The notes below the pieces were generated by a model. The model saw nothing but the letters and a program-made list of their open reading frames with translations. It was not told where the DNA came from and made no database searches. Positions 5,968 through 49,887 of a DNA stretch of 64,000 nt are shown one piece after another (within the stretch, counting starts at the first letter, position 1; each line of letters begins with the position of its first letter). A program made the position numbers and the translations under genes. This stretch comes from Candidatus Magasanikiibacteriota bacterium (GTDB taxonomy: Bacteria > Patescibacteriota > Patescibacteriia > Magasanikbacterales > GWA2-37-8), in assembly GCA_016182085.1 (NCBI GenBank), contig JACOYB010000004.1:339923-403922 (forward strand). Reading direction: 5' to 3'.

Positions 5968-7149
5968 ATGTCCAGAGGTTTTGAAAATAAAAAAATCATT
6001 TTACATCAAGGAGTTTATAAAAGACCGGTATCGGTAGGCGACGCGATTTTTATGATTACGGGCATGAGTATTGGCGCCGGGATGTTGGGTATTCCCTATG
6101 TAGTGGCCCAAGTTGGTTTAAAAATCGGCATTGTCTATATTTTAGTACTGGGACTGGTGATGTTGTGTTTAAATTTAATGCTCGGAGATATAGCTGTGCG
6201 CACCAATGAACCTTTGCAAATTCCGGGACTGGTTGGCAGGTATTTAGGCAAGGGGCCAAAATATATTATCAATATTTTAGTTGTTTTCGGTTCATATAGC
6301 ACGCTGCTCGCCTATATATCGGGTGAGGGGCAGGCGCTAACAGCTTTATTTGGAGGGAGCCCAGTAGTTTGGAGTTTGGTATTTTGGACTATTGGGAGCG
6401 CTATAGTATGGCGAGGGCTGCAAACAATCAAAAGCGTAGAAAAGGTGTTGAGCCTTATCGTTATGAGTATAGTTATCGGAGTTTCTTTTTATATTCTACG
6501 GGATTTTGACATGACAGCCTGGGCCTATACCGATGTAAGTAAGATTTTCTTGCCGTACGGTGTGATTTTGTTCGCGTTAAACGCCACGCCAGCCATTATA
6601 GAAGCACATGCTTTATTGCCAAAAGATCAAAAAAGTTTTAAGAGAGCACTTATTATCGGCTCGCTTATACCCATGACCATTTATATTATTTTTGCTATAG
6701 CCGTAGTTGGGGCAACCGGACTGCAGACCACAGAGGTGGCAACTATTGGTTTGGGAGAGAAATTTGGCAAAGGGATCCTAGTTTTAAGTAATATTTTTGC
6801 GGTTCTGGCCATGAGCGCGGGTTTTATCGGTTCAGGAATTGCATTAAAACAAAATTTTGTTTGGGATAATAAAATACCTAAGATAATAGCAGAATTTTTA
6901 GTAATCTCGGTTCCTATTTTTTTGTTTTTACTGGGGCTGCGACACTTTATTGTAATTTTAAGCGTAGCTGGAGGATTGGTAATCGGCGTAGAAGCGGTGT
7001 TCCTTGTGTTAACCTGCTGGCAGGCTAGAAGAAAAGGCTATGTTAATGCCTCTGAATACGGCCTTCATCACTTTTGGCTTCTTGCCATTCCGGTTTTTTT
7101 GATTTTTAGCTGGGTAACGGTACAAAGCATGCTTAATTTTGTTAAATAA
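5968..7149 (+). CDS. amino-acid permease, HAAAP (Trp/Tyr permease Mtr/TnaB/TyrP-like) family
   Basis: About 11 predicted TM helices. The N-terminal ITGMSIGAGMLGIPY motif matches the GTAIGAGMLALP signature of aromatic amino-acid permeases. Confidence 0.6.
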   Translation: MSRGFENKKIILHQGVYKRPVSVGDAIFMITGMSIGAGMLGIPYVVAQVGLKIGIVYILVLGLVMLCLNLMLGDIAVRTNEPLQIPGLVGRYLGKGPKYIINILVVFGSYSTLLAYISGEGQALTALFGGSPVVWSLVFWTIGSAIVWRGLQTIKSVEKVLSLIVMSIVIGVSFYILRDFDMTAWAYTDVSKIFLPYGVILFALNATPAIIEAHALLPKDQKSFKRALIIGSLIPMTIYIIFAIAVVGATGLQTTEVATIGLGEKFGKGILVLSNIFAVLAMSAGFIGSGIALKQNFVWDNKIPKIIAEFLVISVPIFLFLLGLRHFIVILSVAGGLVIGVEAVFLVLTCWQARRKGYVNASEYGLHHFWLLAIPVFLIFSWVTVQSMLNFVK

Positions 7150-7170
7150 AAATCTCTAGTGAAGAAAAAA

Positions 7171-8910
7171 TTAAGGTACCACCTTTGAACCCAGAGAGAA
7201 GCCCCTATCATTTCTGTTTAGAATATTATTTATAGGAGTATGGGAAAGATTAAATTTCTTACCAACAAAGCTGTCTGTGGCTGAAAAGGATAGGGAGTTG
7301 GTTAATTGTATGTTTTTTCCTATCTGAGATGCGGTTGGTGTGACTGCCACTTCAAAATACAAACCAGTTTGGCTGTTGGCTGGTAATGAGTCATAGCTCC
7401 AAGAAATAGTTCGGCTAGAGTTGTTATATTTGAGCTGCGGGCCAATTGTGGTGCTTTGTTTTCCGCTAAATTCAACCCCGTCTGGGAGAGAAGTGGAAAA
7501 ACTTGGATTGTCCACGGCGTTAGTAGTATTGATTACCTTTACAAATATCCAGTATTTAGTCATTTTTCCGACTTGAGGCGGCAGGGATCCGCGACCAAGC
7601 TGGTCACCTTCGTTTGTATAATAACGGGCTTCAATACTATTAAAATTAAGCTCGGTTGCCAGCGGCAGGCTAACGCGGCTGCCCTCCTGGCTAAATGCTT
7701 GGTCGCTAATTTCAGGAGCCTCAGCTTTCATTATCGGAAATATTTCCAGTTTGGCATTTTCAGTTTGCGGTAAGTTAAATTTTGGAAGTAGATATATTTT
7801 TACTCCAAATACATCGTTACTCTCCGGGTTTCCATTGCTTAAGCTGGTTCTGGATTGTCCGTCAAAGAATACGCCATTTGCTTCGGTTTTAGCGTGGTTT
7901 TCTTGAGCAGTTTTTTTCCAGTCTACGATACCCTGTAGGTTTGAGGTTAAATGAAGAGAAAGGTTTTGCAGTTTAATACCGCTGTTATTTTTCCAGCTTG
8001 CCTCAACTGGGATGATTTGTCCCGGCTCAGCATAAGGGGGTGGGCTTATTAACTTGACCGCAGAATTTATTTGCGGTGAAAAAATTTGAAATTCCTGTAT
8101 GTTTTTGGTTTGGAAAATTTTTGAGTTTTGGTACGAAATAGCGGTGGCTATTTCAAAGGTGTGGTATCCTGTTTGGCTGGGCGCAGTAAATTGTCCTTCT
8201 ATGGTTTTTGAGCCATTTGGTGGAATAGAGACAAGGTCTTCGTTTAGCATAACTTCATCGCGTTTGCTGGTTAAGATATATATATCTTTAATTTCGCGAT
8301 TACCGGAATTTTTTATAGTATAGGAAAATTTAATGGGCGCGCGAGCAAAAGCAGATGATGGAAATTTCAAGTAGCCGGAAAGAACGCTTTCTGGAAGTTT
8401 GGTAATTAATGATGACAGTTTTTGTTCGCGGCTGCTTTTATTTTCCGGTCGATAGGATAAGTTGGCGATAATAAGGGCATCTTCATTTGGTTCGGTCCAA
8501 AATGATCCGTATACGCTTGCTTGGCCGGAAGCGCCGGCACCTAATTCCTTAACCGAGGTAAAAATTGATTGGTCAGAGAAAACGTCAGTTGGTGTTTTGT
8601 CGCGATTTATAATAAATCCTTCCGGTAAACGGAGGCCCAGCGACGCTTCTTTTAGGTTTATTTTACTGTGGTTGGTATAGCTTACGGTAACGATAACTTC
8701 CTCACCGCTTTTTATTCTTTCATTCCCCAAAGTCATTGATAGTTCAATGAGGCCGGTCAAGCTTGGTTTCCAAAAAAATAAAAATAAATTGCCGGCGATC
8801 ATTGCAAGTGTCAAGGAAAGCAAGGCTAAATCAAAAACAAATAGTTTTTTAGCGCTACGGTACACTCCGTGGTATCTGTTCAGATAGTGATGATGTAGAA
8901 ATTTTAACAT
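7171..8910 (-). CDS. hypothetical membrane-anchored protein with a large extracytoplasmic domain (579 aa)
   Basis: Single N-terminal TM helix (LALLSLTLAMIAGNLFLFFW), then a long Ser/Asn/Thr-rich beta-type region with host codon usage. Confidence 0.6.
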   Translation of the reverse strand: MLKFLHHHYLNRYHGVYRSAKKLFVFDLALLSLTLAMIAGNLFLFFWKPSLTGLIELSMTLGNERIKSGEEVIVTVSYTNHSKINLKEASLGLRLPEGFIINRDKTPTDVFSDQSIFTSVKELGAGASGQASVYGSFWTEPNEDALIIANLSYRPENKSSREQKLSSLITKLPESVLSGYLKFPSSAFARAPIKFSYTIKNSGNREIKDIYILTSKRDEVMLNEDLVSIPPNGSKTIEGQFTAPSQTGYHTFEIATAISYQNSKIFQTKNIQEFQIFSPQINSAVKLISPPPYAEPGQIIPVEASWKNNSGIKLQNLSLHLTSNLQGIVDWKKTAQENHAKTEANGVFFDGQSRTSLSNGNPESNDVFGVKIYLLPKFNLPQTENAKLEIFPIMKAEAPEISDQAFSQEGSRVSLPLATELNFNSIEARYYTNEGDQLGRGSLPPQVGKMTKYWIFVKVINTTNAVDNPSFSTSLPDGVEFSGKQSTTIGPQLKYNNSSRTISWSYDSLPANSQTGLYFEVAVTPTASQIGKNIQLTNSLSFSATDSFVGKKFNLSHTPINNILNRNDRGFSLGSKVVP

Positions 8911-9011: not shown

Positions 9012-9374
9012 TTAGGCTGTGTTTTTGTCTGAAGATTTTTCTCGGGTTTCTGTATTATTTTTTATTTCCTTGTCATGGTTGTTTACAATTTTAGGATTAG
9101 GGGAGTAAAGAGGGTTTTTTATTTTCCAGTTTCCGATAAATTGTCCGATGCCTTTATTTTCCAGTTTGTTTTTAATTGTCGTGTGTCTTTGAGACCATTT
9201 AACAAGGCTTTCAAAGTTTAGTTTATACCTACCCGCTACAACGATATAGATGATCTCCTTAGAAGTGATGGCTCGCCTGATTGTTTGGGCGTTTACGCCA
9301 AACAACTTAGCAGCCTCTGAAACTGAGACCCTAATTACTTCCTTTGGTTTTTCCGTGAGCAAGTTCTGATCCAT
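9012..9374 (-). CDS. helix-turn-helix DNA-binding protein (MerR/excisionase-like HTH)
   Basis: VSVSEAAKLFGVNAQTIRRAI helix-turn-helix near the N-terminus. The gene is divergent from an ECF sigma gene, and its upstream region holds three palindromic operator-like sites. Confidence 0.6.
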   Translation of the reverse strand: MDQNLLTEKPKEVIRVSVSEAAKLFGVNAQTIRRAITSKEIIYIVVAGRYKLNFESLVKWSQRHTTIKNKLENKGIGQFIGNWKIKNPLYSPNPKIVNNHDKEIKNNTETREKSSDKNTA

Positions 9375-9412: not shown

Positions 9413-9478
9413 TCCTAGCATAAATTTACAATTTTGTCAATATTTAAGTTACATCCCCTGTACCTTTAAATAGCTAAT

Positions 9479-9500
9479 TTGTATACACTAGTGTATACAA
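9479..9500. promoter_or_regulatory. perfect 22-bp palindrome TTGTATACACTAGTGTATACAA (operator candidate)
   Basis: Exact dyad symmetry centred on ACTAGT; an identical copy lies 82 bp away. Confidence 0.6.
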
Positions 9501-9560
9501 ATTAAGTAAAAAAACCGCATGGTTAAGGCGCTTTGTGTAGTATTTCAGCATTATTTTATT

Positions 9561-9582
9561 TTGTATACACTAGTGTATACAA
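9561..9582. promoter_or_regulatory. second perfect copy of TTGTATACACTAGTGTATACAA, extended to ATTTTGTATACACTAGTGTATACAAAAT
   Basis: Identical to the 9479-9500 copy; lies in the HTH / ECF-sigma divergent intergenic region. Confidence 0.6.
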
Positions 9583-9734
9583 AATAATTAAATTTGTCAC
9601 AGCCTATCAGAGTCGGAGTTTTTTTTGAAATCAGCTCTTAAATATGTCTTAAAATTCAGGGTTTTTAATTTGACTTTTACCTATTATATTGTTATGATGT
9701 GTATCACTGAAATTATGGTAATAGAGGCAAAAGA

Positions 9735-10370
9735 TTGCAAAACTGTAACACTTTCCTTATTCCTACGTCTACTATAATGTCTAGAAGTAAAATCTCCGAA
9801 AAAATCCTCTTATTCAAGCTTCATACCCGGAAAGACCCGGAAGCTTTCGCAAAGTTATACGATATCTATGCTAGACGAATCTATAGCTTTATTTTTTTTA
9901 AAGTCGGTAACAGAGAAGAAGCGGAAGATATAACGTCAGAAGTTTTCTTAAAGGCCTGGCGTTACATAAATGAAAAAAAGAACATAGAAAGTTTCAGCGG
10001 ATTATTATATAAGCTGGCGCGCAATTCCATAATTGACCTTTACAGATCCAAAGCAAGCCAAAAAGAACTTTTGTCGGTAGATCAAGAAATTGAAGCTGAA
10101 CAAAAATTGGGAAGCACGGCCGTATGGGAAGCTGGCTTTGAAAAAAAGATTGGAGATAAAATTGAAGTGCAAAAAATAATTTTGGCGCTGCAGAAATTAA
10201 AACATGAATATAGAGAAGTGGTAACGCTCAGATATGTTGATGAGTTAGAGATAAGCGAGATAGCGGAAATTACCGGTAAAGGCCATATCTCAATCCGCGT
10301 TACATTGCACCGAGGTTTAAAAAAACTGAAACAAATTTTAGATCAAAATAAAAAATCCGAGAAACAATAA
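9735..10370 (+). CDS. ECF-type RNA polymerase sigma factor (sigma-70 regions 2 and 4)
   Basis: Region 2 EDITSEVFLKAWRYI...LARNSIIDLYR; region 4 EVVTLRYVDELEISEIAEITGKGHISIRVTLHRGLKKLK. The tracker start is a TTG at 9735; an alternative ATG at 9777 (MSRSKIS) directly follows a TATAAT box. Confidence 0.8.
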   Translation: MQNCNTFLIPTSTIMSRSKISEKILLFKLHTRKDPEAFAKLYDIYARRIYSFIFFKVGNREEAEDITSEVFLKAWRYINEKKNIESFSGLLYKLARNSIIDLYRSKASQKELLSVDQEIEAEQKLGSTAVWEAGFEKKIGDKIEVQKIILALQKLKHEYREVVTLRYVDELEISEIAEITGKGHISIRVTLHRGLKKLKQILDQNKKSEKQ

Positions 10371-12006: not shown

Positions 12007-15000
12007 ATGACTGATGTATTAAAATCCGTAAAAAAAATCTTTACGGTTAGCGTTGTCGGCGCCACCATGTTGTGGTCCGTTGGCGTTTCGGCTTTGTTGC
12101 CATCTGTTGCTGACGCAGCAGTTTGTCCAACACTTGCCGCCGGTGACATGATCAAGGTATCTGGTAAACCAGCTATCTATTCTGTCGACAAAATGAGTAA
12201 AGTTCTATATTTCCCTTCCGGTGATGAATTCAAGAGCTGGAATGAAACTAACTCCTATGGTGGTTACGTAACTGTAACTCAGGAATGTTTTGATTCCTTG
12301 CCAGTTCCTAGCACATACCCAGGCGCAGTAAACTACCGCGCCGGTTCATACGTTGTAAAGAGACCTTCCTCTGATCAATTGTATGTTGTTGAGCCAGGAA
12401 ATAAATTAGCAAAAATTTCTACAACTGATGCTGCCGCTTTATATGGCGCTAGCTACAAAGTAATGACTGTTGCCGACGCTTTCTGGCCTCACTATGTAAA
12501 TAGAGGAGCCGATATTGCCGGTATGGTTCATGAAGGTATGCTCGTAAGTAAAGATGGTAAAACATGGCTTGTAGATGCCGGTAATGTACTTCGTGAAGTA
12601 ACAGCTACTGGTATGACCGCTAACAGATTCAAATCTGCTTTCGTTCATGCTGTACCTGCTTCCTACTTGACAGCTACTACCGTTGGTTCTCCAGTTACTG
12701 CCCTAGAATCTGTTCTGTCTAACAGAACTCAAGATGGTGCTATCACCACTCCAGGTCCAGTAGTTGGTGGCAACCTAAATGTTACTTTAGCCGCTGATAA
12801 TCCAGCTGCTGGTAACATTGCTGACGGTTCTGCTTACAACAGCGTCTTAAAATTAAACTTAAGCGCTAGCGCAGCTACTCAAGTTACCGGATTAACCTTA
12901 ACCAAGACTGGTCTTATTTCTAATACAAATATCTCCGGTGTTAGCGTTTGGGATTCTCAGGGTAACCGCAAAGGCGATGTAATGACTTCCTTAACTTCAG
13001 ATAATAAAATAACTGTAAGTTTTGGATCAAGTCCATTACTCGTAGGAGCTGGTAGCAGCGAATCTTTAACTGTTAAAGTTAATATCGCTCCTGCTGCTAA
13101 CTCTGGACTCGTAGGCTTTAGTCTAGCTGCCGCTGCTGATGTTGTAAGTAATGGTACTGTTGCCGGATCATTCCCAATCGTTGGTAACCAAATGGCTATC
13201 ATTGATGGTAATGCTTCCTTAGCTTCTACTACTATTTCTGGTCAATCAGTAGGTGGTTCCGCTTCTCAACCTGCTAGCACTGCTTCCGGTAACTTAAATA
13301 TTGGCGATCTACAAAAAGAAGTTGCCAAATTTAGATTCACCGAACAGACTGGCAATGAAGATGTGTCTATCTCTAGAATTACTTTCTACGTAGCTGGTAC
13401 TATTCAAGATACCGACCTAGCTAACTGGAGTGTTTACGCTCCAAGCGGAGAAAAACTTGGTATGACAGCCGCAATGAGCAATCGTTACGTAACTGTTAAC
13501 TTTACCACTCCTTATGTAGTACCTAAGAGCACAAACCGTGATCTTACTGTAAAAGTTGATGTTGTAAACGGTTCAACCCGCAACTTCAATGTTCATATTC
13601 AGAGTGATTACGATGTATTGATTAAAGGTGTTACTACCGGATTCTACATCTTGCCTGGTTCCTTCTCAGACACAACTAGTACAACTGGTTGGTTCAACAT
13701 GGGTTCAGGTACACTAACAGTTAACAAGGCCGTCACTTCTCCTTCTCTAAACATTTCTTCTGGCGCACAAAGTATTGTGTTAGCTAAATTTGATGTTAAA
13801 GCTGTAGGTGAGAACATGGAATTGCGCAAGATGGGTCTTGGTGTAAACCAGGCCGCCGGTTCCAAGACTAAATTAACTGGCAATGTAATTGTTCGTGACG
13901 CAACAGATGGAACTGTATACTTGACTATAGCTGCTTCCGGTGCTGCTGTGTACGGTAGTGCAACACAATATACCTTATCCAGTTACTTGAATCTTAACTC
14001 AAATCAGACAAAGACCCTTGAAGTAGTTGGTAGTGTTGATTCTACTGCAACTTCTGGTGTAAGCTATCAGGTACAAATTGGTAACTTCTATGGTAAGAGA
14101 CTTTCTACTTTAGACTTTGCTGACAACTTGCCAACTTCTGGCAACACCTCTACAGCTGCCAACCAATTAACAGTAAGCGCAACTTCGCTCACTTGTTACA
14201 AGGATACAGCTATGGGTAGTGTTACCCGTGCTCCAGGTGCTACTACCGTAATTGGTCAGTACATCTGTACAGCTGGTACATCTGAAGATGTTCGTTTGAC
14301 AAACGTTGGCGTAGCCTTTGGTCTTGTTTCCGGTATGGCTTCCAACATGTTCCAGAACTTAACACTTTGGAACGGATCTACTCAATTGGGCACATCTTTA
14401 AGCACTGTTGCAAGTACATCAAACAACTTCAACTTTGACTTAACTGTTCCAAAGAGTCAGACTGTAACCTTGCAACTCAAGGCACTCGTTGTAACCGGAG
14501 CTTCCGGAGTCGTAACCACATCTTTCTCCAGCTATAACTATACTGGTAAAGACAGCGGTACAAGCGGAACTGGAAGTATCGTAGCTGGTCAACAGATTAC
14601 TGTTGGCGCTGGTAACTTAAATGTTACTGCCGTATCCGATGCTACTACCCTTTCAAAGGTGTATGGTCCTAACCAGACTGGCGTACAATTAGGTAAATGG
14701 AAACTTGCAGCTGCTAATGATAATGTTACTTTGAGTAAATTAACATTACAGTCTGTATACTCCAACTTAAGTGGCGCTGTTACAACTCTTGGTACATATG
14801 GCAGCTTGTCATTGTATGATGGCTCAACCTTACTGGCCTCTGCTAGCTATGTAAATGGCGATGTAGTGTTCACTGGTTTCAGCTCCACAATTACAATGGA
14901 TAGTTATAAAGTTTACACTTTGAAAGGCACCACAAATGGTTCCGGTGTAATTACTAATAACACCTCCACTGCTTTCGTAGTAAAGAGCGACAGCAATACT

Positions 15001-15705
15001 GACATGGAAGCTAGATCCGACGCTGGTTCACTCCTTGGTACTGCAGATATCAACTACAACACTGCAAGTAACGCAGGTAGCGCTGAATCCAGAATTGGTA
15101 CATCTACAGCTTACTTGTTCCATGACGCATACCCAACTATGACTGCTGTGTCACTTGGAAGTGCATTACTTTTGGATAGCCAAGCTAAGATCCTCAAATA
15201 CACAGTAACCAACTCTGGTGCTCGTGACTTGAGATTGTCCAGCACAACTGTAAACCTAAGCGTTTCCGGTTTAACTGGTTCTGGTGCTAACCTTGGTAGT
15301 GTTTCTGACTTCAGATTGTATGAAGACAATGGTTCTGGTGGTTTGGGCACATACTTGGCCAACACTTCTACCATTTCTATCAGCAGTACAACTCCTAACG
15401 CAGTAGCTTTGATCTTCGGTGTAGGAAATGATCAGAATAGTCTCTTTGACAACCTTGTGGTTGCTCCAGGAGCTAGTCGAACATTTATCGTAACCGCAGA
15501 CACTACTGACATGCTTGACGGTAAGACTACCGGAAGTGTAACACTTTCCGCTAAGATTGCCGGTTCAACTGGTTGGAGCGGTACAGCCTGGAACACAGGT
15601 AACTTGTTATACTTCTACACTCCAGTCGCAGGAAGTGAACAAGGCGCCTTCTCCCACTCAGACTCCTATGATGTATCAGGTACTTCATTGACCTACACAT
15701 TATAA
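12007..15705 (+). CDS. giant secreted surface protein (1232 aa), Thr/Ser/Gly/Asn-rich beta-rich; putative S-layer or adhesin-like envelope protein
   Basis: Signal peptide MTDVLKSVKKIFTVSVVGATMLWSVGVSALLPSVADA. Low-complexity beta-strand-like composition throughout. A roughly 280-nt leader upstream and a strong terminator downstream. Confidence 0.7.
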   Translation: MTDVLKSVKKIFTVSVVGATMLWSVGVSALLPSVADAAVCPTLAAGDMIKVSGKPAIYSVDKMSKVLYFPSGDEFKSWNETNSYGGYVTVTQECFDSLPVPSTYPGAVNYRAGSYVVKRPSSDQLYVVEPGNKLAKISTTDAAALYGASYKVMTVADAFWPHYVNRGADIAGMVHEGMLVSKDGKTWLVDAGNVLREVTATGMTANRFKSAFVHAVPASYLTATTVGSPVTALESVLSNRTQDGAITTPGPVVGGNLNVTLAADNPAAGNIADGSAYNSVLKLNLSASAATQVTGLTLTKTGLISNTNISGVSVWDSQGNRKGDVMTSLTSDNKITVSFGSSPLLVGAGSSESLTVKVNIAPAANSGLVGFSLAAAADVVSNGTVAGSFPIVGNQMAIIDGNASLASTTISGQSVGGSASQPASTASGNLNIGDLQKEVAKFRFTEQTGNEDVSISRITFYVAGTIQDTDLANWSVYAPSGEKLGMTAAMSNRYVTVNFTTPYVVPKSTNRDLTVKVDVVNGSTRNFNVHIQSDYDVLIKGVTTGFYILPGSFSDTTSTTGWFNMGSGTLTVNKAVTSPSLNISSGAQSIVLAKFDVKAVGENMELRKMGLGVNQAAGSKTKLTGNVIVRDATDGTVYLTIAASGAAVYGSATQYTLSSYLNLNSNQTKTLEVVGSVDSTATSGVSYQVQIGNFYGKRLSTLDFADNLPTSGNTSTAANQLTVSATSLTCYKDTAMGSVTRAPGATTVIGQYICTAGTSEDVRLTNVGVAFGLVSGMASNMFQNLTLWNGSTQLGTSLSTVASTSNNFNFDLTVPKSQTVTLQLKALVVTGASGVVTTSFSSYNYTGKDSGTSGTGSIVAGQQITVGAGNLNVTAVSDATTLSKVYGPNQTGVQLGKWKLAAANDNVTLSKLTLQSVYSNLSGAVTTLGTYGSLSLYDGSTLLASASYVNGDVVFTGFSSTITMDSYKVYTLKGTTNGSGVITNNTSTAFVVKSDSNTDMEARSDAGSLLGTADINYNTASNAGSAESRIGTSTAYLFHDAYPTMTAVSLGSALLLDSQAKILKYTVTNSGARDLRLSSTTVNLSVSGLTGSGANLGSVSDFRLYEDNGSGGLGTYLANTSTISISSTTPNAVALIFGVGNDQNSLFDNLVVAPGASRTFIVTADTTDMLDGKTTGSVTLSAKIAGSTGWSGTAWNTGNLLYFYTPVAGSEQGAFSHSDSYDVSGTSLTYTL

Positions 15706-15746
15706 TCTGAGATAAAGGCATAAATCTGTAAAAAGTTTACAGAGCA

Positions 15747-15780
15747 AAACCCGCCCGCAAGGGCGGGTTTTTGTTTTTAA
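15747..15780 (+). terminator. rho-independent terminator after the surface-protein gene
   Basis: AAAACCCGCCCGCAAGGGCGGGTTTTTGTTTTT. Confidence 0.8.
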
Positions 15781-15855
15781 TTATTTTTTCTTTTTTTATT
15801 TTTAATCCTTTTCTCTTTGTAGTTGTTTTATTTAGTAAAAACATTTTCCCGTCTT

Positions 15856-16345
15856 TTATCACCCCATTTTGTCAGCAAAAACACACCTCCCTTACCCCCT
15901 TTCTTTTAAAAGAAAGGGGGTGGAAAGAAATCGCTCGCGGTGGAAAGATTCAGAAAATTTAGGATTCGTTATTCGTTAATTTTCAAAACTCGCCAGCTTA
16001 TTATAAAAGCTGTCTCAAACATTGAAAATTTACTTTGGCCGCCTTAAGGCGGCCAAAGCTAACACTCAAACTCATCTCTAAATTTAACTTCGTCCTTTCC
16101 AAAGCGAGCCCGGACAATCGACGGACACCGTTGTTGTCCAACGGTCGATAACCGAGCATATGGCGAGTGATGCTACTGGCCACGGTGAGGGTAAGCGGTG
16201 CCTTCTTTAAGGCACGGGCAGTCATAAGGTAGCTTGCTGATTGACTGCCCGAGTGAACCCTAAACCGATTGGCAGTAGCGAAATGAGACATCAGCGAGGC
16301 AGTTTTGGGGCATCACCCCGTTTTGCTGACAAAATGGGGTGATAA
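15856..16345. mobile_element. 490-bp element bounded by perfect 25-bp terminal inverted repeats (TTATCACCCCATTTTGTCAGCAAAA), with a GC-enriched, hairpin-dense interior; MITE-like or structured ncRNA locus
   Basis: Left repeat 15856-15880 and its exact reverse complement at 16321-16345. The interior holds perfect hairpins: CCCCCTTTCTTTTAAAAGAAAGGGGG (15895-15920), CTTTGGCCGCCTTAAGGCGGCCAAAG (16033-16058), GTGCCTTCTTTAAGGCAC, GGGCAGTCA...TGACTGCCC, and ATCGACGG...CCGTCGAT. Interior GC is about 50% against a 38% background. No target-site duplication was seen. Confidence 0.45.
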
Positions 16346-16420
16346 GGGTTGGCAAGTGGTTTTTTATTAAAGAAAGCGGCTATAGAAGTATTGCAAAAGA
16401 TGAAAAGGAAAGCTCTTAGC

Positions 16421-16449
16421 TTGACAAATGACCTATTTTATTGTATATT
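16421..16449 (+). promoter_or_regulatory. sigma-70-type promoter of typA (TTGACA, 17-nt spacer, TATATT)
   Basis: cTTGACAaatgacctattttattgTATATT, about 50 nt upstream of the typA ATG. Confidence 0.55.
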
Positions 16450-16499
16450 GCCTGCACATTCTGCCGCGATTGGCAGAATTTTAAATTAGAAATACTTGT

Positions 16500-18305
16500 A
16501 TGAACATCCGCAACGTTGCCATCATCGCCCACGTAGACCACGGAAAGACCACACTTGTGGATGCTTTGTTGCGTCAATCCAAAACTAAATTATCCAAAGA
16601 ACAAGATAGTCAGATTACAATCATGGATAGTAATGATTTGGAACGTGAACGCGGTATTACGATTTTTTCCAAAAATGCTTCCGTAGAATGGAAAGATACA
16701 AAAATAAATATCATTGATACCCCGGGACACGCTGACTTTGGCGGGGAAGTAGAAAGAGTTTTGAAATTAGCTGATGGTTGTTTGTTGCTTGTAGACGCCA
16801 AAGAAGGCCCAATGCCTCAGACCAGATTTGTGCTCAAAAAAGCTTTGCAAATGGGGCATAAAGTAATTGTAGTTATAAATAAAATTGATAAACCAGGCGC
16901 CAGACCAAATTGGGTGCTAGACAAAACTTTTGATTTGTTTGTGGAACTTGGAGCCAGCGACGAAGTGGCTGAATTCCCAGTTATTTATGCTTCCGCCAAA
17001 AATGGTAAGGCCGGTATGGCACCGGATCTAGAAGCAATGACCGACATTACTCCTGTTTTTGATACGGTGTTAAAATTTATTCCTGAACCAAAAGTAGATC
17101 CAAATGCGCCGTTGCAAATACTCATTACTACTATTACCGGCGATAATTTTAAAGGTAGAATTGCGACTGGCAGAATCTATAACGGCACAATCAAAACTGG
17201 CCAAGATATAATGCATATAAATAGAGAAGGCGTAATGAAAAAATGCCGCGTTATGGCGCTCATGACATTTTTTGGTTTAGAAAGAATAGAAGTTCAAGAA
17301 GCGTTTGCCGGAGATGTGGTGGCTATTGCCGGTATTGGAGATATAAACATCGGTGAAACTGTGGCTGATGTTGCCAGCCCGGTTGCTTTGCCGCTTCTTA
17401 CCATAGAAGAACCAACTGTTAAAATGACTTTTAGTGTAAATAATTCTCCGTTTGCCGGAAAAGAAGGGGAATTTACCACTTCCAGACAGATTCGCGATAG
17501 ATTATTTAAAGAACTAGAAACAGACATGGCTCTAAAGGTGGCCGATGGTACCGAAGGCAATTGGATTGTTTCTGGCCGCGGTGAATTGCATTTAGCAATA
17601 CTTATCGAACGTCTGCGCCGAGAAGGATTTGAATTCCAGATTTCTCGTCCGCAAGTTATTATTAAAGAAGTTGATGGTCAAAAAATGACTCCTTATGAAC
17701 AAGTGTTTGTGGAAGTTCCCGAAGCTCATTCTGGAGCGGTAATCCAAAAGTTGGGCAGCCGCCACGGAGAATTACGAGAAATGAGAACCGAAAATGGCAT
17801 AGTTTTCTTAGAGTTTATTATTCCAACCCGCGGGTTGTTTGGTTATCGTACCGAATTTTTGACCGACACCAGAGGTTTGGGAATTATCAATACAATTTTT
17901 TATCAGTACATGCCGGATCCGGCCAATTGGCGCGAACGCGATCAAGGATCGCTTGTGGCTCACGAAACTGGTGTTACCAATTTGTATGGACTTCTTAATG
18001 TGCAAGACAGAGGAGTTATGTTTATTGGCCCTGGTGTGCAGGTTTACAAAGGCCAGGTAGTGGGTCAAAATGCGCGCAGTGAAGATATATCTGTAAATGT
18101 ATGTAAAGAAAAACAACTCTCTAACATGCGTTCCAAAGGCGATGGCGTGAGCGAACATTTTAACGCGCCAAAAGTTATGGATTTGGAAGAAGCGATGGAA
18201 TATATCGGTGATGATGAACTTGTAGAAATTACTCCAAAAAGCATTCGCATCAGAAAAGTTATCTTGGATGAAAGCGAAGCCAAACGAAAAGCACGGGGAA
18301 TGTAA
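16500..18305 (+). CDS. typA: translational GTPase TypA/BipA
   Basis: N-terminus MNIRNVAIIAHVDHGKTTLVDALL with G1-G5 motifs, an EF-G-like domain architecture, and a length of 601 aa. Confidence 0.92.
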   Translation: MNIRNVAIIAHVDHGKTTLVDALLRQSKTKLSKEQDSQITIMDSNDLERERGITIFSKNASVEWKDTKINIIDTPGHADFGGEVERVLKLADGCLLLVDAKEGPMPQTRFVLKKALQMGHKVIVVINKIDKPGARPNWVLDKTFDLFVELGASDEVAEFPVIYASAKNGKAGMAPDLEAMTDITPVFDTVLKFIPEPKVDPNAPLQILITTITGDNFKGRIATGRIYNGTIKTGQDIMHINREGVMKKCRVMALMTFFGLERIEVQEAFAGDVVAIAGIGDINIGETVADVASPVALPLLTIEEPTVKMTFSVNNSPFAGKEGEFTTSRQIRDRLFKELETDMALKVADGTEGNWIVSGRGELHLAILIERLRREGFEFQISRPQVIIKEVDGQKMTPYEQVFVEVPEAHSGAVIQKLGSRHGELREMRTENGIVFLEFIIPTRGLFGYRTEFLTDTRGLGIINTIFYQYMPDPANWRERDQGSLVAHETGVTNLYGLLNVQDRGVMFIGPGVQVYKGQVVGQNARSEDISVNVCKEKQLSNMRSKGDGVSEHFNAPKVMDLEEAMEYIGDDELVEITPKSIRIRKVILDESEAKRKARGM

Positions 18306-18869: not shown

Positions 18870-19505
18870 ATGGAAAACGTCTGGGTCGGTATCGTTCTGT
18901 TCGCTCTCGCTGCCACCTGCCTCGCTCTCGTCGAGATCGAGTCGGAGGGCAAGCACGGGTGGGCAGAGAAGTTGCCCACCTGGTACCGCACCAAGGGCCG
19001 ACTGGCGCGGATCTACGCCATCATCATGGCGAAGAAGCCGCTCACCGGCTATCACCTCTGGATGTTCTTCTTCCCGATCTTCTTCTTCCACTTCCAGTTC
19101 GCCTTCGCGTCCTGGTCGCTGGAGAAGGAGCTGCTCACCTGGGCGGTCTATTTCGCCTGGTGTGTGCTGTGGGACTACCACTGGTTCGTCATGAACCCCG
19201 CCTATAAGGGCAGGTTCAAGAAGGACTACGTCTGGTGGCATGCGAAGAGCGCTTGGGTGTTCGACTGGTTTCCGGTCGACTACCTGGTGGGCACGGGCTT
19301 CTCGTTCGTGCTCGCAGCCGGAGCAGCCTTGGTCGCTGGCAACAGCGGCGTGTTGCTCAACCACTTCTATGTGGTGGCGGGTTGGTGGGGCTATACGGCG
19401 ATCCTCAAGATCATCGTGAGTCCATACTACCATCGCTGGCATATCAAGATGCATCATTGGTCGCGTGACCAACGCGACCAAGTCGACATCTTCCACCAGG
19501 ACTAA
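18870..19505 (+). CDS. Trp-rich polytopic membrane protein (211 aa) of unknown function on a roughly 60% GC island
   Basis: Strong GC3 codon bias unlike the host. Four to five hydrophobic segments, W-rich (WDYHWFVMNPAYKGRFKKDYVWWHAKSAWVFDWFPVDY), GGAGG ribosome-binding site. The overlapping antisense ORFs look spurious. Confidence 0.6.
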   Translation: MENVWVGIVLFALAATCLALVEIESEGKHGWAEKLPTWYRTKGRLARIYAIIMAKKPLTGYHLWMFFFPIFFFHFQFAFASWSLEKELLTWAVYFAWCVLWDYHWFVMNPAYKGRFKKDYVWWHAKSAWVFDWFPVDYLVGTGFSFVLAAGAALVAGNSGVLLNHFYVVAGWWGYTAILKIIVSPYYHRWHIKMHHWSRDQRDQVDIFHQD

Positions 19506-19575
19506 ACCCTCACGGACGCGCCACCGCAAGGCGTCTGATGGGACACAAAGAAAGGAGCAGTACTTGCGGTCTCAT

Positions 19576-19609
19576 CAAAAACAACTTTCACCCGAAGGTT
19601 GTTTTTGTT
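19576..19609 (+). terminator. rho-independent terminator after the GC-rich membrane-protein gene
   Basis: AAAAACAACTTTCACCCGAAGGTTGTTTTTGTTT. Confidence 0.65.
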
Positions 19610-19929
19610 TATGTTATATTTGAGAGGTGGTAAGTAAGTAGACAGTAGAGAGGAGTCGTGATATTATGGCGGTAATATTAGTTTTTTATTACTACTTAAT
19701 AACATAGGTCCAAACACCAGCCACCTCTCCTTTATCTCCTGAACTAAGGTGTGCCAGAAAAAAGACAAGTAGGCTACACCAAAAACTAAAAAACCGTTCG
19801 CAAATTCCTCCTGCTTTACCTCTAAGTTAATATTTAGAAATAAAGCAGATGGGCGAACGGTTTTTTGTTTCCCACCTATTTTTTAAAGGTGGGCCGCGAA
19901 TGTACATGGTTCCTCCTGTGAACGGTTGT

Positions 19930-21072
19930 TCAGCGAACGGCGAGGGTGTTCCCGCCGAACTCGATGCCCAGCGGACTGATCACGACCTTCTTCTCGCTGC
20001 TCGCCTCGATGTGGCCGGCGACGTAGGCCTGGAACGGCTGGCCCTGCGCTGCCTCGAGCACCTTGCTCACGTCCTCGGGGGCAACGTAGATCGCGAAGCC
20101 CGCACCCATGTTGAAGGTGCTATAGGCTTCCTTGTCGCTGACCGGTCCGTGCTGCTGGATGAAGCGGAAGATCGGCGACGGGTTGGGCGGCAGCTCGTCG
20201 ATCACGTAGGTGAAGTTGCCCTCCGCGCGCATGAGCTTGCGCCAGCCGTGCCCCGTCACGTTGACGGCGTAGTGGATGTCGATCCCAGTCATCTGGCACG
20301 AACGGATGAGCTCGACATAGATGTGCGTCGGGTCGAGCAGCATCTCGCCGTACGTCTGGCGCATGTTGACCTGGGTGAGGTAGCCGTCCGGAAGCTTCTT
20401 GGCGATCTTGCGCGCGAGCGTGTATCCGTTGGCGTGGACTCCCGAGCTCGTGAACATCACGATGACGTCGCCGTCCTTGATGCGGCCCGGGTTGATGACC
20501 TTCTCCTTGGGTGCGATGATGCCCGTGGCCGAACCCGAGAGGACGGCCGTGAGCGGCAGGACGATACCCTGGAGCGTCGGTGTCTCGCCTCCGCCCCAGA
20601 CGCAGCCGGCCTGGAGGCAGGCGCGCTTCGTCCCCTCAACCAAGTCATGGCAGCGACGGTCGTTCTTGAACCAGTCCGAGTCGCCGACAGCGAGGTGCTG
20701 GGCGTAGGAGACCGGCAGCGCGCCGAGCGTGATCATGTCATTGACTGCCATCGCCACGTTGCACTGGGCAACCTGGTCGTAGAAGGTTCTCGTGCGGCCA
20801 GCGAAGCTGATGCCGTCCACGAGCTGGAGCATGGCGTCGGCCACCAAGTTCTTGGTGCCGAGGCCTTCCTCGACGTGGGCGATGTAGCCCCAGGGCGTCT
20901 CGATGAGGAACGCGCTCTCACCACGGCTCCACCCGACCACCTTGAATCCGAACCGGTCGGCACACCGATCCGTATCCCGGGCGGCAAGCTGCGCCACCCG
21001 CTTGAACGGATCCATGGTGTCGTAGTTAACGCCGGTAGCGGCGTAGGTCAGACCCTTTTTGGAGTCACTCAT
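19930..21072 (-). CDS. purM: PurM-family protein (phosphoribosylformylglycinamidine cyclo-ligase / AIR synthase-like), divergent, about 62% GC
   Basis: Blocks alignable to E. coli PurM: GVNYDTMDPFKR (GVDIDAGNALVER), EGLGTK (DGVGTK), VAMAVNDMITLGALP (VAMCVNDLVVQGAEP), CLQAGCVWGGGET (CLQSGCSLVGGET), DGDVIVMFTSSGVHANGYTLARKI ([24 protein letters not shown]) and YSTFNMGAGFAIYV (YRTFNCGVGMIIAL). The start is taken at MSDSKKG (ATG 21070-21072) because the upstream in-frame extension is AT-rich host-like sequence. The gene is convergent with the membrane-protein ORF. Confidence 0.65.
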   Translation of the reverse strand: MSDSKKGLTYAATGVNYDTMDPFKRVAQLAARDTDRCADRFGFKVVGWSRGESAFLIETPWGYIAHVEEGLGTKNLVADAMLQLVDGISFAGRTRTFYDQVAQCNVAMAVNDMITLGALPVSYAQHLAVGDSDWFKNDRRCHDLVEGTKRACLQAGCVWGGGETPTLQGIVLPLTAVLSGSATGIIAPKEKVINPGRIKDGDVIVMFTSSGVHANGYTLARKIAKKLPDGYLTQVNMRQTYGEMLLDPTHIYVELIRSCQMTGIDIHYAVNVTGHGWRKLMRAEGNFTYVIDELPPNPSPIFRFIQQHGPVSDKEAYSTFNMGAGFAIYVAPEDVSKVLEAAQGQPFQAYVAGHIEASSEKKVVISPLGIEFGGNTLAVR

Positions 21073-21259
21073 TGATGTTTTCTCCCGAAAAGTTGTTGGG
21101 TTTCGTAAGCAAAAACTATCATAAAGGGAGAAATAATTCAAGGGTTTTTAGAAACTGCGTAGTTTGCAATTTTGAATATTTTATTTATTATTTTTGACAT
21201 CCTACAAAAAACCTGTCATTCTAATTTTATCAACAATTGTAGAAAGAAGTGGGGGAACC

Positions 21260-48266: not shown

Positions 48267-49778
48267 ATGTTTAAATCTTACCTTAGATTAGGCAAAAAAT
48301 CAATAGGATTAGGGCTCATAGCCCTAATTTTTAGCTTGAGTTTTACGAGCGGAGTTTTGGCTAAAATTCCCAACGATCCCAAGTTTCCCTTGCAGTCTGA
48401 CTTTTATGGCCAAATTGGCGCGCCTGAAGCTTGGGAATATACCACCGGAACCAGCAGTGTGGTAGTGGCGGTCATAGATGTTGGTGTAGATATTACGCAC
48501 GAGGATTTAAAAAATAATATTTGGAAAAACTCAAAGGAGCTACCCGGGAACGGTATCGATGACGACAATAATGGTTATGTGGATGATATTCATGGTTGGA
48601 ACTTCGTAGAAAATAATAATGATATTTCGCTTTCGGTTATCAAGGAAGTAGATGATTCCGGGGCCGTAAATCATGGTACCGTGCTTGCGGGGCTTATCGG
48701 GGCCCAAGGGAATAATGAAATATTAGGCGCCGGTTTGAATTGGGATGTAACCATAATGCCAGTGCGTGCTATAGATAATGCTGGCGGCGGAGTGCTTGCA
48801 AATGTGGCCAAGGCTGTGGATTATGCCGTAAATAATGGCGCTTCTATTATTAGTATAAGTTTTGTCGGTTTTGTTACCTATCCGGATTTAACCGATGCGT
48901 TATATAGAGCTTATCAAAAAGGTGTGCTGCCTGTAGTGGCCGCAGGCAATAGCCGTAATGACAGTAGCGGCAATGAAAATCTAACCAAAGTTAAACAATA
49001 TCCTGTTTGCTTGGATTCAGACTCTTCCGAAAATTGGATTTTGGGGGTAGCGTCCGTGGATTTGCAGGATAGGTTAAGCGATTTTGCTGATTATGGGAGT
49101 TGTATAGATATATCCGCTCCAGGAGAGAAGATTTTTAGTACGCAAAAATATGCGCCGCAATATGGATACACCAAAGATTTTGATGGAGCTTGGTATGGCA
49201 CTTCTTTTTCCGCGCCGTTGGTGGCTGGGGCGGCTGCGCTCGTAAAGTCTGTTCGTCCGGATTGGAAGGCAAAAGAATTAATGTCTGCCTTGCTTCGCAG
49301 CGCCGATGATGTTGATGGCTTAAATCCGGGGTTTGCCGGCCAAATGGGCTATGGTCGTTTAAATGTAGGCAAAGCCGTGGTCTTGGCTGTGGAATCAAAA
49401 AATATTCCGCCAATTACTTTTGAAACTAAATTGATAAATCAAAAAAAATCATACGCAATGCGAATTTCGGCAAATGGCAAAGTATTGCAAGATTTTCCCT
49501 TGTTCGGATATTCATCAAAATTTTCAAAATGGATGCTCAAAGATGATTTGTTTGTTTACGCGCGGTTTAGCAATAATAAAATAATTGTGGATGTCTGGGA
49601 TCTATCGGGGAATAAGAAGCTGTCCAACTTTGTGTTGCCGGGTATGACCGGCTTATCTGGCATAGAGGTAGATACGGTCTGGGGAGATAGCCCCAATGCA
49701 ATTTTATTTGCAAAGAAAGGAAAAGTAAATCAAAAAATTATTATAGATATTCCGAGCAAGAGCTGGAAGGTTGAGTAA
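48267..49778 (+). CDS. secreted subtilisin-like serine protease (peptidase S8)
   Basis: Signal peptide; catalytic triad contexts VAVIDVGVD (Asp), HGTVLAGLIGA (His), GTSFSAPLVAGAAAL (Ser). Confidence 0.85.
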   Translation: MFKSYLRLGKKSIGLGLIALIFSLSFTSGVLAKIPNDPKFPLQSDFYGQIGAPEAWEYTTGTSSVVVAVIDVGVDITHEDLKNNIWKNSKELPGNGIDDDNNGYVDDIHGWNFVENNNDISLSVIKEVDDSGAVNHGTVLAGLIGAQGNNEILGAGLNWDVTIMPVRAIDNAGGGVLANVAKAVDYAVNNGASIISISFVGFVTYPDLTDALYRAYQKGVLPVVAAGNSRNDSSGNENLTKVKQYPVCLDSDSSENWILGVASVDLQDRLSDFADYGSCIDISAPGEKIFSTQKYAPQYGYTKDFDGAWYGTSFSAPLVAGAAALVKSVRPDWKAKELMSALLRSADDVDGLNPGFAGQMGYGRLNVGKAVVLAVESKNIPPITFETKLINQKKSYAMRISANGKVLQDFPLFGYSSKFSKWMLKDDLFVYARFSNNKIIVDVWDLSGNKKLSNFVLPGMTGLSGIEVDTVWGDSPNAILFAKKGKVNQKIIIDIPSKSWKVE

Positions 49779-49887
49779 TTAAATACACTATCTATGTAAG
49801 CTGCCTTCCACCGCTCGTTTTGTTTTTAATCTTGCGTGTTGTAAATGGGGGAGGAGAATGCTATAATTTATATATAATTTTCTATTC

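Follow-up and report, generated by a model that had tools for sequence, protein, structure and literature searches.

REPINs are extragenic, non-coding inverted doublets of a palindromic unit, and they are inherited mostly vertically and in a lineage-specific manner (PMC3116915, PMC3337134). As single-stranded DNA (ssDNA) they form a hairpin, they carry compensatory changes, they can adopt either a long-hairpin fold or an alternative 'clover' of two local hairpins, and they occur as decayed singlets as well (PMC3116915). Here we describe an element at positions 15856-16345 of a 64-kb stretch of a Candidatus Magasanikiibacteriota genome (64,000 nucleotides of contig JACOYB010000004.1, assembly GCA_016182085.1; the whole stretch is called the window below). 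It belongs to a lineage-specific, non-coding and non-autonomous repeat family of a Candidatus Magasanikbacteria clade that is previously undescribed; our literature searches found no report of a MITE (miniature inverted-repeat transposable element), a REPIN-like element or a large structured non-coding element in Patescibacteria or the Candidate Phyla Radiation (CPR). Like a REPIN, the element reads as an inverted doublet, has a predicted ssDNA fold with compensatory changes and alternative pairing, is accompanied by singlets and shows no target-site duplication. It differs in scale, its units being multi-helix folds of ~200-230 nt where REPs have ~20-40 nt, and the doublet spanning ~450-550 bp where REPINs span ~70-110 bp. 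Moreover its two units are consistently of distinct types and only about half identical, 1-2 copies were seen per 60-400 kb whereas REPs number tens to hundreds and have a conserved 5' motif, and no RAYT gene was found in the 64-kb window.

Bacterial MITEs and mosaic repeats (Correia, RUP, BOX, ERIC, bcr1, QMITE) share with the element their small size, the lack of an open reading frame (ORF), an intergenic position, terminal inverted repeats (TIRs) and stable predicted structures. Mosaic intergenic repeats can be modular in composition (BOX), vary in presence between strains and promote rearrangement (PMC10969869, PMC3049150, PMC3184786), and the same holds here. In contrast to these repeats, the present element has no target-site duplication, its termini covary instead of being conserved, its interior is a complex fold conserved with covariation, it is made of homologous units and its host belongs to the CPR. 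Derivatives of IS200/IS605 (PATEs), integron attC sites and the attP of CTX phage act via folded ssDNA, with hairpin ends and without target-site duplication. Such ssDNA-hairpin elements need no identical TIRs and their stems are kept by structure and not by sequence, in which they resemble the element here. The ends of IS200/IS605 are however direct and not inverted, and insertion occurs 3' of a fixed tetra- or pentanucleotide, a motif that is not visible here; nor did we find TnpA, TnpB or IntI near element copies. HEARO/omega RNA, ROOL and GOLLD are likewise several hundred nucleotides long, covary strongly and have a patchy multi-copy distribution. They differ from the element, which has no Rfam match, no IscB/TnpB ORF, no prophage context, no strand asymmetry and no match to phage, plasmid or viral contigs.

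Anatomy of the element

Homologues were collected by scanning for a conserved 22-mer pattern, by synteny look-ups of TypA relatives and by look-ups of the spurious ORFs annotated on the element. The search space was the 64-kb window of the host genome together with ~110 retrieved loci (numbered with the prefix L), and for each unit type 6-12 distinct sequences were aligned. Of the 11 loci obtained in the pattern scan of metagenomes, six (L081, L082, L084, L086, L087, L090) were chance matches in high-GC coding sequence. The minus strand of the window serves as reference orientation of the element.

A preliminary description of this DNA, made from the letters alone, had pointed to a hairpin-dense element bounded by perfect 25-bp TIRs, and these are indeed present. 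TTATCACCCCATTTTGTCAGCAAAA at 15856-15880 (+) recurs as its exact reverse complement at 16321-16345 (25/25), with no further match at up to three mismatches in the 64 kb and no match of any kind in shuffled controls (0/100). The perfect palindrome ACCCCCTTTCTTTTAAAAGAAAGGGGGT at 15894-15921, previously given as 26 bp, and the hairpin CTTTGGCCGCC-TTAA-GGCGGCCAAAG at 16033-16058, with a perfect palindromic stem of 11 bp, were also found, and additional stems lie at 16215-16251, 16196-16214, ~16119-16148 and 16312-16343. The hairpin density is matched by the folding energy of the 490 nt, which lies far below that of shuffled sequences with RNA parameters (z = -12.6 for the plus and -14.1 for the minus strand) and with DNA parameters (z = -14.8). 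The GC content is 0.46 for the element and 0.475 for its interior, somewhat less than the 50% first estimated, with 0.19 in the left and 0.35 in the right flank.

The organization of the element became apparent with a covariance model, R1, built from the second domain (unit II) of six copies. R1 matches unit II of the window with 186 bits (E 1.5e-43) and the second domain across copies with 150-207 bits. It also matches the first domain on the opposite strand: with 52-68 bits (E 1e-10 to 1e-14) in every other copy and with 25.5 bits (E 4.7e-6 in a 2-kb search) for unit I of the window at 16144-16345 (+). Searches with nhmmer likewise gave family matches on both strands. Since a model of one half thus recognises its counterpart on the complementary strand, the element reads as a head-to-head inverted doublet of two homologous units of ~200-230 nt, and the 25-bp TIR is the terminal sequence common to both units, not a simple transposase site.

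Unit II (15892-16115, minus strand) is a fold of ~220 nt with nested helices closed by GCTCGC/GCGAGC and GGAAAGG/CTTTCC. Its end is the palindrome at 15894-15921, and the extra palindromic hairpin at 16033-16058 is specific to the window. The homologous unit I (16144-16345, plus strand) carries the most conserved blocks of the family, ACTGGCCACGGTG and CGGTCGATAACCGAGCATATGG, and ends in the terminal hairpin ATCACCCCGTTTTG-CTGA-CAAAATGGGGTGAT at 16312-16343, which has a 14-bp stem with one G.T and whose 3' arm is the right TIR. The two units meet head to head at a central hairpin (CGACGGACACCGTTG / TTGTCCAACGGTCG, 16119-16148) that varies in sequence and length between copies and about which three chimeric copies (L085, L109, L110) are symmetrical. 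Read on the minus strand, a terminal hairpin is followed by the first domain, which encloses variable hairpins, by the short central hairpin, by the second domain with its nested helices, by a second terminal hairpin and by a tail. The first domain is closed by CCGAGC/GCUCGG and ACUGCC-GG/CCGUGGCCAGU. In the model alignment both halves share the blocks GAGCAU-UGG, GGUGA, GAACGGUU, UGUUUGAG, GAGUUCAGG and CCGC-G, after which comes the terminal hairpin.

The tail repeats one arm of the first hairpin, and its pairing with the outer arm of that hairpin is what appears as the TIR. In the window the left arm (15856-15880) is the outer tail of unit II in the minus-strand reading and complements the right arm (16321-16345), and because the right arm is also half of the local hairpin at 16312-16343 the left arm has two alternative partners. 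The combination of terminal hairpin, spacer and TTTTGCTGACAAAATGGGGTGA tail is also found in L088a and in the left fragment of L093. Terminal complementarity is 25/25 in the window, 26/27 in L099, where the sequence is unrelated, and 22/22 in L088a; the termini have decayed in L092, L009, L083 and L106. Variants of the 16312-16343 hairpin with wholly different stems occur in five copies (L009, L092, L091, L099, L109). Finally, one copy (L091) is a single unit with a terminal inverted repeat of 12/13, and another (L085) consists of two type-I units joined.

Compensatory change and strand symmetry

Covariation on the homologues supported the structure in both unit types. In unit II, 35 of 62 pairs were altered on both sides and 93.9% of the alignment cells were paired, compared with 37-51% when the partners were slid by 1-3 columns; none of 500 shuffles attained the observed values. 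In unit I, 13 of 29 pairs were altered on both sides among 12 copies. The helix that closes the termini covaries as a whole between the window, L099 and L088a.

For a prediction of helices that favours neither strand, G.U pairs were forbidden. The resulting strand-symmetric helices contained 236 Watson-Crick, 4 G.U and 2 A.C pairs in one unit type and 266, 7 and 6 in the other. Runs in which G.U was allowed each favoured their own strand, and the strand-symmetric version showed no bias. We infer that the selected fold is that of single-stranded DNA, because the helices are near-purely Watson-Crick on both strands.

The repeat family and its dynamics

About 15 homologous copies were found in at least 7 genomic contexts, which bears out the copy-number check proposed with the preliminary description: as the element is not single-copy, the mobile-element reading survives. 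Full elements are intergenic and ~450-550 bp long, and the observed copy number is 1-2 per 60-400 kb. Copies lie at the same site as in the window, between a putative surface-protein gene and typA (the surf-typA site; L009, L088b, L092-L094, L099), in the permease-DUF11 intergenic region (L088a, L109), next to RNase J (L106/L107, L093), at FtsW (L085), before a TPR gene (L083), and in the contexts of L091 and L108. Pairs on one contig were seen in L088 (9 kb apart), in L085/L093 and in L108 (two copies on a 1301-bp contig). The surf-typA site lacks the element in L001, L002, L098 and L100-L105, and distant TypA relatives (P0009, P0010, P0015, P0020) have empty sites only. Conversely the window itself is empty at its permease-DUF11 junction (7141-7176), where L088 and L109 carry a copy.

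At the surf-typA site the element is preceded by the terminator of a 1232-aa gene and followed by the promoter of typA. The intrinsic terminator (15746-15778, plus strand) is conserved in L001-L010 and forms the left boundary of the insertion site; the typA promoter (TTGACA-17-TATATT, 16421-16449, plus strand) lies outside the element and is present with or without it. In L001, whose TypA is 97% identical, terminator and typA promoter are direct neighbours: over window 15600-15778 the two sequences are 98.9% identical, the alignment restarts at 16420, and L001 has only 'GT' in between. The segment gained or lost relative to this nearest relative, 15779-16419, is larger than the TIR-bounded region of 490 bp. 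There is no target-site duplication at surf-typA, because the junction bases are not duplicated between the window and L001, and none was found at the second filled/empty pair either (L088 versus the window, permease-DUF11). The motif CTTYR beside the termini was considered as a target-site motif and is more likely part of the element end.

The two flanks within this segment bear on its history. The AT-rich left flank (15779-15855, plus strand, GC 0.19) is collinear with the sequence 5' of those copies that relatives carry in the opposite orientation (window 15600-15811 aligns with L092 1687-1891 and window 15741-15807 with L009, both on the plus strand) and contains a decayed terminal-hairpin relic, GTTTTATTTAGTAAAAAC, at 15825-15842. 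The right flank (16346-16419, plus strand) is collinear with the 3' end of (+)-oriented copies in relatives and holds at 16361-16405, in plus orientation, a relic of the second arm of a terminal hairpin together with a tail, TTATTAAAGAAAGCGGCTATAGAAGTATTGCAAAAGATG; window 16361-16599 aligns with L092/L093 2360-2600 on the plus strand at 82.6% identity. Compared with L092, L093 and L009 the window has collinear flanks and an inverted core, whereas compared with L099 everything is collinear. As the flank relics keep the "old" orientation (16361-16405 and the decayed 15825-15842), this indicates that the core was inverted in place via its hairpin-type inverted repeats, in an event common to or repeated in L099. 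Opposite orientations were seen only between lineages. There is no sign of rapid flipping, since assemblies with identical TypA from different samples (L092, L093, L094 and the cut L095-L097) all share the (+) orientation.

Other copies record further rearrangement. Among assemblies with identical TypA the upstream gene is either the 1232-aa gene (L092, L094) or RNase J (L093). As the breakpoint falls within the element, either the repeats bring about chromosomal rearrangement or they give rise to chimeras in the assembly. The window element itself is a mosaic, its first half being like L099 and its second half like L088a and L083; terminal hairpin types have been swapped between copies, and extra half-hairpins pile up at the tails. 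Several contigs start or end inside an element (L108 with 1301 bp, L110 with 562 bp, the ends of L003 and L095-L097). Taken together the family has been gained or lost cleanly, inverted in place, recombined into mosaics and chimeras, and reduced to single-unit and collapsed derivatives.

Coding capacity, known RNAs and mobility genes

The 96-aa minus-strand frame at 16001-16291, noted from the outset as not protein-like, exists and is annotated as hypothetical protein HYT15_02010. Among 5.8 billion proteins it matched only itself, and in L009 the frame is broken into ORFs of at most 64 aa. As it is not conserved, it is not a protein gene and we consider the annotation spurious. Gene callers have put similar spurious ORFs of 45-132 aa on the element elsewhere (P0001, P0122-P0126). 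A type I toxin or small peptide was also discarded for want of a conserved frame: no conserved or hydrophobic peptide was found in any frame across copies.

Rfam gave no hit to the window element at gathering threshold, be it to RNase P, tmRNA, SRP, 6S, HEARO, ROOL, GOLLD, group I/II introns or riboswitches; with the cut-off relaxed to E of 10 it returned chance matches of low-complexity or terminator type and nothing else, and on five other copies it gave nothing. This agrees with the initial failure to match RNase P, tmRNA, SRP or 6S RNA by motif, as does the absence of a tmRNA in the ARAGORN output. A resemblance to RNase P by eye (CAUAAGGUA and GUCCGGGC in common) was unsupported by Rfam. 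A diversity-generating retroelement template, a retron and a group II intron were rejected as well, there being no reverse transcriptase, no repeat of the upstream gene and no Rfam match. The element has no conserved promoter or intrinsic terminator.

Pfam scans of nearly all ORFs of the 64-kb window returned housekeeping genes only. Neither there nor beside any copy did we find a transposase, RAYT/Y1, integrase, invertase, recombinase or reverse transcriptase. Finally, neither a blastn search of phage and plasmid collections nor pattern scans of viral contigs gave a match to the element.

Possible nature of the element

The explanation we favour, with a probability of about one half, is a non-autonomous element, REPIN/MITE-like, whose fold is formed in ssDNA and which a hairpin-recognising enzyme would move or maintain in trans. 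Such an enzyme, REPIN/RAYT-like or IS200/IS605-like, would recognise the hairpin ends on ssDNA, and target-site duplications would therefore be absent. The choice of the terminal arm between local hairpin and long-range closure could act as a switch between a recognisable and a locked form, as proposed for REPINs. A model of this kind explains why the element is a doublet with hairpin ends and alternative pairing, why target-site duplications are lacking and why compensatory changes and decayed singlets occur, all of them features described for REPINs (PMC3116915). No effect of the element on typA would be expected, as the gene's own promoter lies beyond it. We prefer ssDNA to an RNA gene because of the 26-28-bp perfect palindromes, the lack of promoter and terminator, the occurrence of both orientations, and the presence on each strand of one unit in sense and one in antisense.

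Several observations weigh against this explanation. No mobility enzyme lies in the 64-kb window or beside any copy, the copy number of 1-2 per 60-400 kb is low, and no excision or insertion intermediate was observed. The patchy distribution might stem from an old element that was lost repeatedly and not from movement. To our knowledge, a multi-helix fold of ~200 nt with conserved unpaired motifs exceeds any hairpin that HUH transposases need. With G.U allowed, a small number of U.G pairs on the unit-sense strand come out as invariant in RNAalifold, and each unit type is represented by only 6-12 distinct sequences.

It is the interior fold, far more elaborate than any known transposase substrate, that keeps a transcribed structured non-coding RNA family as a rival. 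Either the 25-bp helix would close the doublet of ~450-490 nt into one RNA, or the ~200-nt units would each be a separate RNA; the function could be regulatory, scaffold or ribozyme-like, and the dispersal would be that of paralogous RNA genes. The very low folding energy, the nested long-range helices that covary, the covariation of the terminal closing helix and the conserved unpaired motifs (UGUUUGAG, GCGAGUU, GUGGCCAGU, GCUCGG-UAUCGACC) are all in accordance with an RNA, and with G.U allowed RNAalifold gave -39.1 kcal/mol for unit II on the window-minus strand versus -30.3 kcal/mol on the other, with invariant U.G pairs. Natural RNAs usually have ~5-15% G.U pairs, whereas G.U makes up ~1.5-2.5% of the pairs in the strand-symmetric helices here, equal to A.C. 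An RNA gene is further opposed by the empty Rfam scans even at E up to 10, the missing promoter and terminator, the two orientations relative to neighbour genes, the sense and antisense units on a single strand, the perfect 26-28-bp palindromes and the closest relatives that lack the element. Of the preliminary proposal of a structured RNA gene the structure has thus been confirmed by strong covariation and the gene has not, given no Rfam match, no promoter or terminator, a variable orientation and no strand bias. We regard an RNA family as possible, though less probable than the ssDNA element.

A further reading, which we put forward with some doubt, is that the ~200-nt unit belongs to a new class of functional folded nucleic-acid module in CPR bacteria, either a structured RNA or an ssDNA recognition fold, that spreads as inverted doublets, helped by a putative enzyme system. 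The element would then be a new kind of mobile element centred on RNA or ssDNA and not a decayed transposon end.

A classical cut-and-paste MITE, in which the two ends of a DDE-type insertion sequence (IS) remain as long and diverged TIRs after internal deletion and the parent transposase binds 22-25-bp termini, appears unlikely to us. Perfect TIRs of 22-27 bp are present in several copies and one deletion derivative retains them, and the size, the AT-rich intergenic sites, the lack of an ORF and the stable predicted structure fit the description of MITEs (PMC10969869). At neither site with an empty orthologue, however, is there a target-site duplication; the TIR sequence is wholly different between the orthologous copies of the window and L099 while its complementarity is kept, which is unexpected for a transposase-binding site; many copies have no matching termini; the interior helices show covariation, of which cut-and-paste transposition has no need; and no parent IS was seen in the window or the 110 loci. 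The MITE suggested at first holds as far as behaviour goes (multiple copies, presence and absence, both orientations, truncations that keep the TIR, no ORF) and fails in its textbook form, with no target-site duplication or parent transposase found and with a TIR that is the unit end.

Even less credit can be given to an inverton, that is a segment flipped by a recombinase at the 25-bp inverted repeats as a phase switch for typA or the upstream surface-protein gene. Both orientations do occur at one locus in related lineages with collinear flanks, and in the window and L099 the flipped core lies between perfect inverted repeats. But typA has a conserved promoter of its own beyond the segment, whether or not a genome carries the element, no conserved promoter-like site lies within the segment, no invertase or integrase is encoded in the 64 kb, identical-TypA assemblies from different samples share one orientation, and the same element occurs at unrelated loci.

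The alternative 5'/3' pairing is similar to hok-type fold-back inhibition, but a type I toxin-antitoxin locus in which 5'-3' pairing locks the mRNA, or a small protein gene in the 96-aa frame, can be set aside, because despite the existing ORF, annotated as a hypothetical protein in the source metagenome-assembled genome, the frame is interrupted in homologues, has no homologue among the 5.8 billion proteins, yields no conserved or hydrophobic peptide and accumulates substitutions that track helices and not codons.

Other features of the window

The gene upstream of the element (12007-15705, plus strand), which encodes the 1232-aa protein, has no Pfam domain and an N-terminal signal-like segment; an ECF sigma factor and a DUF5667 protein accompany it in conserved synteny in all relatives. 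The copies of the window and of L088a are each found at the 3' end of a gene for a putative surface protein. Downstream of the element comes typA (16500-18305), whose product places the host in Candidatus Magasanikbacteria. Right after its promoter a hairpin, ATTCTGCCGCGATTGGCAGAAT followed by TTTAAATTA, is found at 16458-16488 and is conserved upstream of typA in relatives (L001-L015) with or without the element; it may be a typA leader or attenuator. In L004-L006 and L013 the typA leader has an extra structured insert of ~120-150 nt.

A possible relic of a collapsed unit was detected at 49750-49835 (plus strand), where only the outer stems CCGAGC..TGGAAGG / CCTTCCACCGCTCG are left, followed by TTTTGTTTTT; R1 gives it 22.7 bits (E 0.0044 over 431 kb), a weak match. 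This stretch, which reads CCGAGCAAGAGCTGGAAGG...CCTTCCACCGCTCG and then TTTTGTTTTT, comes directly after a subtilase gene (48267-49778) and has the form of a terminator-like hairpin.

Two near-identical perfect palindromes of ~30 bp with the core TTTGTATACACTAGTGTATACAAA are located 80 bp apart at 9474-9505 and 9555-9588, flanked by a divergent HTH_17 gene (9012-9374, minus strand) and an ECF-type sigma-factor gene (9735-10370, plus strand). From their arrangement they look like paired operator sites. A GC-rich island at 19000-21100 (0.51-0.65, compared with ~0.42 for the genome) contains an AIR-synthase-like ORF (19930-21141, minus strand; Pfam AIRS, AIRS_C) overlapped by a 408-aa antisense ORF; this DNA is perhaps of foreign origin, or else mis-binned or chimeric.

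Significance

CPR/Patescibacteria have tiny, streamlined genomes that are thought to be repeat-poor, and here they retain a half-kilobase non-coding element whose fold is held by compensatory change. The element at present passes for a hypothetical protein in annotation and it breaks metagenome assemblies. It also reshuffles its neighbours, as seen from the 1232-aa gene or RNase J upstream among identical-TypA assemblies, with assembly chimera as the alternative. If the ~200-nt unit were a new class of module, it could be an RNA (guide, scaffold or ribozyme) or serve for recognition as folded ssDNA. If the fold acts as RNA, the family would represent a new large RNA class. If it acts as ssDNA, as we favour, a cognate hairpin-recognising enzyme is predicted, and the REPIN idea of an inverted doublet that replicates as a unit would reach a distant phylum and units of ten times the size.

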